IMG/VR virus record: IMGVR_UViG_3300048609_000070
Length of the DNA stretch: 64,000 nt
Strand: one strand, 5' to 3'
From: a virus
Shown: one piece after another, positions 29,396 through 30,370 of the stretch
Layout of the letters: each line of letters begins with the position of its first letter
How positions within the stretch are numbered: the first letter of the stretch is position 1
The notes under the pieces: model-generated
What the model saw: the letters and a program-made list of their open reading frames with translations, nothing else
Told to the model about the DNA's origin: nothing
The model's database searches: none
Program-made: the position numbers and the translations under genes

Positions 29396-29399
29396 GGGT

Positions 29400-30335
29400 C
29401 TGACTCTTCACGTCTCTCGACTGGATGGTTTCGTAAGTCTCTTTTTTCTCGCGGTCAGCGTTGTCCCATTGTTGAGCGGCGGTCCCTTTTTCTTAAGCGT
29501 CTCCCCGCTTCTTGCTCCTTCGTCCCTATCTTCTTGTTATCTTGTTTCGTTCGCGCATCTGCTCGTCCATTTTACGTCCCGGTATCTCGTTCTCATTATG
29601 TCTCTTTTTTCTTACTTTGTTTCCCTTGCCCATTTTGCTTAGTTCCTGAGTCCCGTTCATGTCTGTCTCGTATACACTTCGTCTCGGTGTCTCGTGTTCT
29701 TTATTCCCAAATTCGCGTCTCGATACCTACCGCTACGGATGCTCACATCAAGTCTCTTTTTCTCGCTCTCTGTCTCGTGTTCACAGTCCGTCTCTCGATT
29801 TCTTTGGATAGTTCTAAATTCTTCAGGATGTCTCTTTCTTTTCGTCTCTTGTTTCCCGTGCACCTGCTCAGGACAATGGCATCCGTCTCTTTTTTCCTTT
29901 GTCAGCCGCATACATTTCCTTGGTCTCTGACTGCACGAGTACGAACTTAAAGACTGTCTCTTCCTTGTCTCGAATCCTGTTTTCAATTCGTCTCGTCTCT
30001 TGTGCCGATTCTTTCGTCTCGTGTCCGTCCCTTTTTTATGAACAGCGGAAGGGTGCCAGTCCCTTTTCTCCTACCATTTTCCGAATCGTCTCTTTTCCTA
30101 TCCTTACTCCTAGCCTCTTTTCACAACCATAGTCCATAAGCTTCACGCCTATCTTTTTTTTCTGGGCACATGCCTAAAGTCTCTTTTATGGCAGTATGCA
30201 GGTCTCTTTCTTACGGTATATTCGCGTCTCATGGGCACTCCACGTCTAAGTCTCATTTCCGTGTAGGTTGGCATCGCAGGGTCTCTTTTTCAGTCAGGCT
30301 CCGTGGTCTCTTTTTCTCGAAAAGGCTATAGGTCA
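29400..30335. repeat. GTCTC/GTCCC-motif array 1 (about 37 copies at 6-90 nt spacing; about 12 carry GTCTCTTTTT(T)C) upstream of the radical SAM gene
   Basis: Same pyrimidine-rich, G-only-in-GTC composition as array 2. Lies between the promoter at 30343-30370 and the radical SAM start at 29395. Confidence 0.65.
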
Positions 30336-30342
30336 CCCACCC

Positions 30343-30370
30343 ATTCTAGCTGGGAAGCTTAGTTTGTCAA
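30343..30370 (-). promoter_or_regulatory. consensus sigma70 promoter (minus strand): TTGACA-16nt-TAGAAT
   Basis: RC reads AATTATTTCTCTTGACAAACTAAGCTTCCCAGCTAGAAT. Duplicate of the 28374-28401 module. Confidence 0.6.

Follow-up and report, generated by a model that had tools for sequence, protein, structure and literature searches.

Can an array of several tens of short, co-oriented motifs, lying ahead of a phage gene, be traced to a recognizable origin, and what may it be used for? The question is raised by a stretch of viral DNA 64,000 nucleotides long (IMG/VR record IMGVR_UViG_3300048609_000070, indicated below as the window), where the pentanucleotide GTC[CT]C recurs on the plus strand between positions 29396 and 30342, upstream of a minus-strand gene encoding a radical S-adenosylmethionine (SAM) protein. 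We call this region array A2; in its predicted transcript the motif reads G[AG]GAC, and will be called the tag. Both variants of the tag coincide with the last five nucleotides of the repeats found in CRISPR loci that accompany relatives of a Cas12b homologue, whose gene lies 1.6 kb downstream of A2. Two elements built like the core of a trans-activating CRISPR RNA (tracrRNA), each exposing a pentanucleotide complementary to a tag, flank the same gene. We consider it likely that the tags are derivatives of CRISPR repeat ends, functionally tied to the Cas12b homologue and to the tracr-like elements.

A2 contains 34 motifs, 27 GTCTC and 7 GTCCC, with none in the opposite orientation; in 300 dinucleotide-preserving shuffles the full motif is expected 6.1±2.4 times, the maximum being 12. 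GTCTC taken singly is expected 2.2 times from the base composition of the region, and 0.84 times from the window background. An earlier interpretation of the same DNA, the sequence-only reading, had reported about 37 copies, and about 12 exact occurrences of GTCTCTTTTT: array and strand bias are real, and the 12 exact copies do exist, but in the window as a whole, only six of them falling within A2, along with two copies of GTCCCTTTTT. On the plus strand GTCYC leads into a run of 5-6 T, with C or T next, and the 5' side is not conserved; read as RNA, the motif is 5'-(G/A)A(4-6)-G-[A/G]-G-A-C, with no conservation on the 3' side. Tags are spaced more regularly than random (median 24 nt, coefficient of variation 0.58 versus 0.94, P=0.0004), show no helical phasing, and are separated by sequences which are also purine-rich (about 62%). 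TRF detected no tandem repeats within the arrays, inter-tag sequences being unrelated, and the head-to-tail units of fixed length typical of type III toxin-antitoxin RNA repeats and of ordinary tandem repeats are not found.

The array fills the entire space from promoter P1 to the radical SAM start codon, as expected from its previous description as the 5' leader of this gene. In the leader arrays, the first tag lies from a few to about 26 nt past the predicted transcription start, the last one 17-27 nt before the start codon. The leader had also been described as structured, which does not hold, since A2 folds no better than its shuffled versions (z=+1.07); tags are not more unpaired than other purine runs. 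A coding or recoding region was rejected after reading all six frames, the minus frames being full of stops and tags occurring in every one of the frames read; plus-strand open reading frames (ORFs) over A2 are artefacts of the low A content. A known RNA family was likewise discarded, as no Rfam match was obtained over A2 at either gathering or permissive thresholds, and the only one in the window is a group II intron located elsewhere. An assembly artefact, a concern raised at the outset, is argued against by an independent Logan assembly of run SRR33185868 (L221, 3234 bp), 100% identical to positions 27461-30694 of the window, including all of A2 and of the neighboring array A1; this assembly may derive from the same sample as the window.

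Genes around A2 all lie on the minus strand. In transcript order, the locus comprises a vault-shoulder-like gene, promoter P1, A2, the radical SAM gene, a small ORF, promoter P2, array A1, the Cas12b homologue, array A3, promoter P3, about 440 nt of non-coding sequence, promoter P4 and the next gene (Table 1). The two tracr-like elements, E1 and E2, lie within A1 and at the beginning of the predicted P3 transcript, respectively.

The identity between tag and repeat end was recorded as a prediction, drawn from what is known of guide architecture in Cas12b, before the loci of the relatives were seen. The three nearest Cas12b relatives showing an array feature 36-nt repeats ending with GGGAC or GAGAC: 15 repeats, GTCGCAAGCGCTGCCGGAAGCTGTAGATGGTGGGAC, with end GATGGTGGGAC, in locus L333 (protein P0047, 37% identity); 27 repeats, GGCGCACCGGATCAAAAAGCTGTCGTCGGGCGAGAC, with end GGGCGAGAC, in L337 (P0051, 36% identity); and 2 repeats ending GCAATTGTGGGAC (AATTGTGGGAC) in L332 (P0048, a RuvC-dead protein). 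Both tag variants of the window are therefore repeat ends of this clade and share the strand of the gene with them, and the leader motif, which had been regarded as anonymous, corresponds to the 3'-terminal pentanucleotide of the CRISPR repeat, matched by the tracr-like elements of the locus. In Cas12b systems a 5-bp short repeat/anti-repeat duplex is found between the long duplex and the guide, the last five nucleotides of the repeat, immediately 5' of the guide, pairing with the short anti-repeat of the tracrRNA (PMC11246509, whose supplement provides the Bh/Bth repeat, GTCCAAGAAAAAAGAAATGATACGAGGCATTAGCAC, and the tracr scaffold). In the tracr cores of the relatives (L333, L332 and L337), GTCCC or GTCTC is complementary to the repeat end of the respective locus. 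These cores, located between gene and array, share a common plan: a 6-7-bp closing stem, 1-5 nt, GTCCC or GTCTC, an inner hairpin and, completing the closing stem, its 3' arm. An equal plan is followed by the published Bh tracr, with GTGCT facing AGCAC. What is conserved of the unit in the window is the A-run followed by GRGAC only.

The 1007-aa product of the downstream gene matches the NCBIfam Cas12b profile NF033949 with 310 bits, against a cutoff of 150, as well as three C2c1 Pfam domains and the PDB structures of AacC2c1 (E=7e-43). GTG at 27813 was taken as the start codon, because only then does the N-terminus align with those of Cas12b proteins. An exhaustive HMMER search with this homologue returned 361 family members, the best sharing 37% identity. 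Alignment with 28 homologues, and to structure 5u34, indicates that two of the three RuvC catalytic residues (D, E, D) are replaced: the RuvC-I aspartate by histidine (MAVHLG) and the RuvC-II glutamate by glycine (VLGDLT), while the RuvC-III aspartate is kept (HVDVNAAQN). The gene had been called dCas12b-like from sequence, a label that these data support.

Other relatives also lack catalytic residues, namely P0048 (Q/N/R) and P0056 (H/G/S). P0056 (L331, 60-140) carries the same His and Gly substitutions as the window protein, and CTCTTGACA, followed by GGGAC and GAGAC, is found just upstream of its start codon. Next to P0048 (L332, 4085-4185) the two-repeat mini-array is followed by an extra GAGAC. 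Just past the 15-repeat array of L333 (12500-12900), the A-rich motifs AAAGCGGACA, AAAGGGCACA, AAGGGACACA and ATGGCACGAAA cluster irregularly, resembling the tag arrays of the window in style.

Both strands of the window (128 kb in all) were scanned for the tracr plan, requiring a strong inner hairpin. Three matches were obtained, versus a mean of 0.28 in shuffled sequences, and two of them, E1 and E2, flank the Cas12b gene with identical geometry (2-nt linker, 29-nt inner segment). The E1 core reads CTACTGG-AT-GTCTC-TC-GTATGTCGCTGGCGTGGCGGCATAC-AA-CCAGTAG, exposing GUCUC as short anti-repeat; the E2 core reads CCGGAGG-AT-GTCCC-TC-GTCGTCGGTTGGCGTGACCGGCGAC-AA-CCTCTGG, with GUCCC in the same position. 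The two elements align as paralogues over about 110 nt: in the core, 17 common pairs include 8 compensatory and 2 one-sided changes, none being broken, and conservation extends to the loops AUGUCYCUC, UGGCG and AA; the wider alignment adds hairpins on the 5' and 3' sides, for a total of 27 pairs, 11 of which compensatory. E1 occupies the sole motif-free part of A1, and its GUCUC fits the surrounding, mostly GAGAC, arrays A1 and A2, being also able to pair with GGGAC through a G-U wobble. E2 lies downstream of the Cas12b gene, in the position of the tracr in L333 and L222, and its GUCCC fits the adjoining GGGAC array A3.

After both cores, small closed hairpins fill the position of the long anti-repeat. 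In E1 and its tail a scaffold, a closed stem, a short repeat and a putative guide follow each other in the same order as in engineered Cas12b single-guide RNAs (published Bh/Bth sequences). A covariance model (R1), built from E1 and E2 only, was searched over 131 kb. Its best hits beyond these two were an element 46 nt past the cas12b stop codon of L222, with a GUGCC anti-repeat (E=0.033), followed by the tracr core of L333 (E=0.33); these E-values are rough. The L222 gene (256-4945) encodes a distant Cas12b-like protein (25% identity) with intact RuvC, and directly follows a tyrosine recombinase gene; no array is present within the 5.7-kb contig.

Arrays A1 and A3 are less populated than A2 but also enriched (14 copies versus 3.0 in shuffles for A1, 13-14 versus 3.0 for A3). 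Tags are mostly GAGAC in A2 and A1, mostly GGGAC in A3, and co-oriented with the gene, as in canonical V-B loci, reverse-strand copies being absent from A2 and A3; over the three arrays they add up to 62, each an exact G-R-G-A-C with unrelated flanks. A3 ends 30 nt before P3. P1 is a consensus sigma-70-type promoter, and P3 a strong promoter for a predicted non-coding RNA. P1 and P2 share TCTCTTGACAAA and GCTAGAAT, and 26 of 34 nt overall, so that the near-duplicate promoter noticed by the sequence-only reading is a solid observation. The tandem duplication of a promoter-array-gene module, which it derived from it, holds for the promoters but not for the arrays, as A1 and A2 have in common only the short tag and a few stretches of 20-27 nt; the description in terms of two modules, moreover, missed the third array, A3, and its promoter P3. 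Sense-strand tags are also somewhat enriched within the Cas12b coding sequence (5.3 versus 1.9 per kb).

Within A1, the hairpin GUGUCCCCAGC-CGGUUGUU-GCUGGGAC (28250-28285, minus strand) pairs a GGGAC tag in cis with GUCCC near the transcript start. The predicted P3 transcript does not fold as one structured RNA (z=-0.66). Its part beyond E2 (24010-24344) lacks GRGAC tags, contains 12 RGAC, against 6.2±2.0 expected, with many CGGAC, UGGAC and AGGAC, and features a UUUUUUC seen by eye at about 24220-24226, complementary to the A-run of the tag. A fourth, more degenerate array is conceivable here, as is a long anti-repeat.

Table 1. Features of the tag-array locus in transcript order
Feature	Position	Strand	Remarks
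Vault-shoulder-like protein gene	30392-32899	-	
Promoter P1, TTGACA-16-TAGAAT	30343-30370	-	A/T-rich stretch upstream
Array A2, 34 tags	29396-30342	-	Transcript (A-run)G[AG]GAC; median unit 24 nt; purine-rich, unstructured
Radical SAM protein, 258 aa	28619-29395	-	Start set by family N-terminus conservation
Small ORF, about 69 aa	28413-28622	-	Read from sequence; hydrophobic N-terminal half
Promoter P2, TTGACA-16-TAGAAT with TG	28374-28401	-	-35 region ttttCTCTTGACAAAAAA
Array A1, 14 tags, mostly GAGAC	27814-28373	-	Interrupted by motif-free element E1
E1, tracrRNA-core-like element	28032-28122	-	Core 28040-28089
E1 tail	27996-28031	-	Small hairpin, A6, tag GAGAC (28014-28010), guide-1 CUCUUGAAACAAAA
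Cas12b homologue, 1007 aa, GTG start	24790-27813	-	Profile, structure and alignment matches
Array A3, 14 tags, mostly GGGAC	24486-24795	-	Starts within Cas12b stop codon
Promoter P3, TTGACT-16-TACAAT	24458-24485	-	Promoter consensus
E2, E1 paralogue	24345-24457	-	Core 24376-24425; starts approximately at predicted P3 transcription start
Remainder of predicted P3 non-coding transcript	24010-24344	-	Ends at weak hairpin and U-run
Promoter P4, before next gene	23966-23993	-	

Each of the 62 post-tag segments was compared with the window, matches being accepted only with a 6-nt seed and a TTN protospacer-adjacent motif (PAM). The top match is that of the segment following the tag in the E1 tail, guide-1, to ttttCTCTTGACAAAAAA in the -35 region of P2, with 12 of 14 positions identical, behind TTTT; P1 carries the same CTCTTGAC block. 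Matches with seed and TTN at 11 or more of 14 positions are 11, versus 5.5 with shuffled guides (P=0.02). The guide-1 match is suggestive, and no more than suggestive, of autorepression of the P1/P2 class of promoters.

These elements can be arranged in a tentative scheme. The arrays would be transcribed by the host RNA polymerase from strong early-type promoters into long, purine-rich, unstructured RNA; each tag would pair with a loop of dead Cas12b-bound E1 or E2, and the 10-30 nt past the tag would serve as a short guide. The complex would then bind complementary DNA at a T-rich PAM without cleaving it, thus blocking transcription. The phage's own promoter class is one candidate target, through guide-1 on the -35 region of P2, which would result in autorepression; further targets may lie in the host or in rival elements. 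In effect, the 36-nt repeat would have shrunk to an A-run and a 5-nt tag, and the arrays would at the same time form the 5' leader of the radical SAM gene, and both the 5' leader and the 3' trailer of the Cas12b gene. That A2 belongs to such a phage-borne, nuclease-dead derivative of type V-B, with the arrays supplying guides, is the explanation we favor, its chances in the full form falling slightly below even. We are more doubtful about a stronger version, in which the guide is specified by the 5-nt tag rather than by a CRISPR repeat, the long anti-repeat is closed into a hairpin, the tracr-like scaffold takes up whatever transcript segment comes after (A-run)GRGAC, mRNA leaders and trailers act as reservoirs of multiple guides for dead Cas12b, and the whole is a programmable repressor of targets including its own early promoters.

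Several observations weigh against guide supply by the arrays. TRF and repeat searches found no 36-nt direct repeats in the window, as a V-B array would have, and the repeats of the relatives match at most 24 of 36 positions anywhere in it. Tags are 5 to 91 nt apart, so that many would-be guides would be shorter than 12 nt; no post-tag segment has a convincing target, exact matches of at least 12 nt being no more than chance in the window, with none in 50,697 phage records; and the promoter match of guide-1 is limited to 12 of 14 positions, with a global P of 0.02. A long repeat/anti-repeat duplex (18-30 bp) is not recognizable, since the A-run flank has no complement in any segment of E1 or E2; in Bh Cas12b, targeting is lost when the long anti-repeat is scrambled (PMC11246509). 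Model R1 did not report the tracr cores of L332 and L337, it gave weak E-values to L222 and L333, and neither E1 and E2 nor the arrays share significant primary-sequence similarity with the Bh tracr or with the tracr regions of the relatives. At 25-37% protein identity the latter result is not surprising; the assignment of E1 and E2 as tracr-like therefore rests on architecture, covariation, position and complementarity. No cas1, cas2 or cas4 was found among about 40 window ORFs scanned with Pfam, NCBIfam or PHROGs, whereas a relative, L335, has cas4-cas1 and cas2. Transcription of the arrays is predicted from promoter consensus only. Finally, no diverged copy of the phage locus was found in any collection searched; queries with the Cas12b homologue and the radical SAM protein against IMG/VR found nothing.

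Among other explanations, the one that survives best, which we regard as unlikely but take seriously, is an anti-CRISPR decoy. The host would carry a V-B system of the same clade, and dead Cas12b, tracr-like RNAs and tags would soak up host V-B CRISPR RNA (crRNA), tracrRNA or Cas12b, either by loading host effectors with useless RNA or by holding host crRNAs in a non-cutting protein. There are published precedents: a phage RuvC-inactivated Cas9 with a phage tracrRNA has been proposed to sequester host crRNAs, and viral single repeat units inhibit host CRISPR (PMC11656645; PMC12669027). Strong early-type promoters, the large number of tags, the absence of detectable targets and the nearby Apyc1-like anti-defence gene would all suit a decoy. 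Mimicry, however, would be expected to involve the long part of the repeat, while only 5-12 nt are retained here; and the two anti-repeat variants co-vary with the two tag variants within a single locus, which suggests that they are partners for each other, rather than for a host molecule.

The location of the arrays, which exactly span the distance between promoter and ribosome-binding site, or between stop codon and next promoter, might also reflect regulation in cis at the RNA level: tags would bind the Cas12b-tracr complex, or some other factor, and control how stable, or how well translated, the radical SAM and Cas12b messages are, with no DNA targeting. The purine-rich, unstructured RNA of the arrays, with its mostly unpaired tags, would be suitable for this purpose, and the enrichment of tags inside the Cas12b coding sequence is in agreement with it. 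We nevertheless deem it improbable: 34 sites greatly exceed those of any known leader-based feedback, no such leader is present in three inspected contigs encoding radical SAM homologues, and neither the unit-like spacing nor the sgRNA-like (single-guide RNA-like) order after E1 is explained.

Slightly less credit still is given to a decaying relic, i.e. arrays captured with cas12b and now unused, in which tags persist by chance or by slippage-driven duplication. Neutral decay would erode the pentamer and its flanks alike, yet 62 exact G-R-G-A-C are found among unrelated flanks; similarly, decay of a unit of about 74 nt would not yield one of 24 nt. A2 and A3 have no reverse-strand copies, and the consensus promoters and two covarying structured RNAs have been kept. 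What a relic would readily account for is the absence of an adaptation module among the scanned ORFs, of a canonical repeat and of targets, the irregular spacers, and the 20-27-nt stretches recurring between arrays, as from local duplication.

An array of DNA sites independent of CRISPR (for binding, nicking or restriction-type enzymes, or acting as Chi-like sequences, partition site or origin) is considered very unlikely, because, although GTCTC and GGGAC are type IIS recognition sequences, short, asymmetric and co-oriented sites are the pattern of one-strand signals, and a purine-rich transcript on a pyrimidine-rich template would favor R-loops, it explains neither the identity of the pentamer with the repeat end of the relatives nor the complementary loops of covarying RNAs, while helical phasing is missing and pattern scans of viral, metagenome and genome collections gave, among the matches listed, ordinary tandem repeats and no comparable arrays. 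Other candidates were dropped for lack of fit, namely a sponge for CsrA, Hfq or TRAP, a Shine-Dalgarno-like stabiliser, boxA or pause sites, polypurine-tract primers, primase, topoisomerase or restriction sites, and a pac site or centromere. The target motif of the TnpB element at 43.8-44.8 kb was also considered as a source of the tags, and no connection was seen.

The suggestion of the sequence-only reading that public data be searched for motif-dense regions led to no comparable arrays among the matches listed: the viral pattern scan returned chance matches and one giant-virus tandem repeat, the genome scan ordinary tandem repeats, and the metagenome scan, among the matches listed, dense AAAGAGAC repeats with microsatellites, having nothing in common with the window. 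Four metagenome contigs (L122, L123, L138 and L147, from Ga0209390 and Ga01050xx) contain kilobase-scale irregular AAAGAGAC(C) arrays mixed with micro- and minisatellites; they look like eukaryotic repetitive DNA, with no homology to the window.

The gene following A2 probably contributes little to the explanation of the array. Its radical SAM product carries CxxxCxxC at residues 9-16, plus another five conserved Cys, and is a member of a phage family without known function; its start was set at 29395 because the N-terminus of the family is conserved. The three inspected homologue contigs have no arrays and no Cas12b-like neighbor; its position in the locus therefore looks incidental, and the gene is probably a passenger, not the reason for the array. 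The small ORF that follows overlaps the radical SAM stop codon and contains one copy of the tag at 28467; it has no Pfam match, and a 70-aa gene is called at the same position in assembly L221.

The window apparently comes from a large phage, on a source contig of 136,545 bp, and no close relative was found among the 50,697 phage records. Besides the locus described, it contains RNA-repair genes, a DnaG-type primase, two DNA methyltransferases, rhamnose-pathway genes, an Apyc1-like hydrolase, a group II intron and a TnpB element, and no tRNA genes. Genes of counter-defence or RNA-repair type encode an Apyc1-like metallo-beta-lactamase (33661-34374, plus strand), a RlaP-family nucleotidyltransferase (36071-36826, minus), an RNA ligase (8632-9690, plus), a CCA-adding-type nucleotidyltransferase (16920-18101, minus) and a DHH phosphoesterase (37465-38505, plus). 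RmlD-like, RmlC-like and nucleotide-sugar epimerase genes (20207-21013, 22535-23260 and 48126-49112, all on the minus strand) may serve to modify DNA, or else a surface structure, with sugars; within the RmlC-like gene there are 7 sense-strand GGGAC in 726 nt, i.e. 9.6 per kb, versus a background of 1.9 per kb.

The vault-like protein encoded upstream of P1 (835 aa) features major-vault-protein shoulder and repeat domains. Homologues with 38-51% identity are found in nine IMG/VR contigs of 15-318 kb, several of which cut at the contig end, with neither arrays nor neighbor genes in common with the window. The group II intron (39540-41300, minus strand), with a reverse transcriptase ORF at 39622-41127 and two Rfam domain matches, is a GC-rich island (65% GC versus 44% for the window). 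The TnpB gene, of the IS200/IS605 type (43771-44811, within 43650-44900, minus strand), has hairpins at both ends and no tnpA. At 21235-22470 two ORFs on opposite strands, of 401 aa (minus) and 385 aa (plus), overlap almost fully; a near-consensus plus-strand promoter is located at 21313, and the 401-aa ORF has no family match.

Should guide supply by tag arrays prove true, it would reveal the extent to which CRISPR arrays can shrink and still feed an effector, and would represent a natural counterpart of engineered tracrRNA reprogramming; a phage-borne, non-cutting Cas12b would join the short list of RNA-guided repressors. Two scaffold RNAs of about 110 nt, one loop letter apart and each with its own set of tags, could help to define the minimal requirements for guide loading by Cas12b, and tag arrays suggest very compact formats for multiplexed guides. 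Being invisible to repeat-based CRISPR finders, such arrays may also be under-counted.

Comparison with known systems starts from subtype V-B. The locus shares with it an effector of the Cas12b family, a tracr core whose 5-nt anti-repeat is complementary to the five nucleotides preceding the variable segment, and the arrangement of gene, tracr and array on a single strand, the gene being immediately followed by a tracr-like element. It differs in the lack of a 36-nt repeat and of an identifiable long duplex, in the size of the unit (about 24 versus about 74 nt) and the irregular spacers, in the inactivated RuvC, in that no cas1, cas2 or cas4 was seen, in the location of the arrays inside mRNA leaders and a trailer, and in having two tracr paralogues with differing anti-repeats.

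Autorepression by a long-form tracrRNA of Cas9, and the TnpB-derived TldR repressors, rely on a short, partly matching guide, which brings a non-cutting complex to a promoter. The possible match of guide-1 to P1 and P2 is analogous to these, although other proteins and a single guide are involved there, with no arrays.

Among inactivated effectors, Cas12b3 (V-B3), carried by conjugative plasmids of Actinomyces, is accompanied by mini-arrays and has substitutions in RuvC-I and RuvC-II (PMC12669027, Extended Data Fig. 7). Compared by description only, it resembles the present system in the substituted RuvC-I and RuvC-II residues, the residence on a mobile element, the small non-standard arrays and the predicted binding without cutting, and differs in that its plasmid-borne mini CRISPR arrays are made of true repeats, instead of 62 five-nt tags in a phage. 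Cas12c, Cas12m and Cas12k, naturally DNase-free or inactive, also silence or recruit by RNA-guided binding (PMC12669027); they are, however, other Cas12 families, with canonical arrays and no tag arrays. The phage RuvC-inactive Cas9 (II-C2) and the viral repeat units, or RNA anti-CRISPRs, similarly combine a crippled class 2 effector with its own tracr-like RNA and with repeat-derived RNA, but they are proposed to act on host crRNAs, and the repeat units mimic whole repeats, whereas only the last 5-12 nt are found here, with co-varying anti-repeat and tag.

Reprogrammed tracrRNAs are close in principle, as the guide is defined by pairing with the anti-repeat and not by a fixed repeat, both stems being reprogrammable, but they are engineered and still contain a long anti-repeat of 18-31 nt (PMC11246509). 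A natural system relying mainly on a 5-nt stem was not found described in the literature searched. On the whole, the locus is best filed as a variant of subtype V-B with an inactivated effector, as in Cas12b3, in which arrays of 5-nt repeat-end tags, and duplicated tracr-like scaffolds with loop variants matching the tag variants, are the new features.

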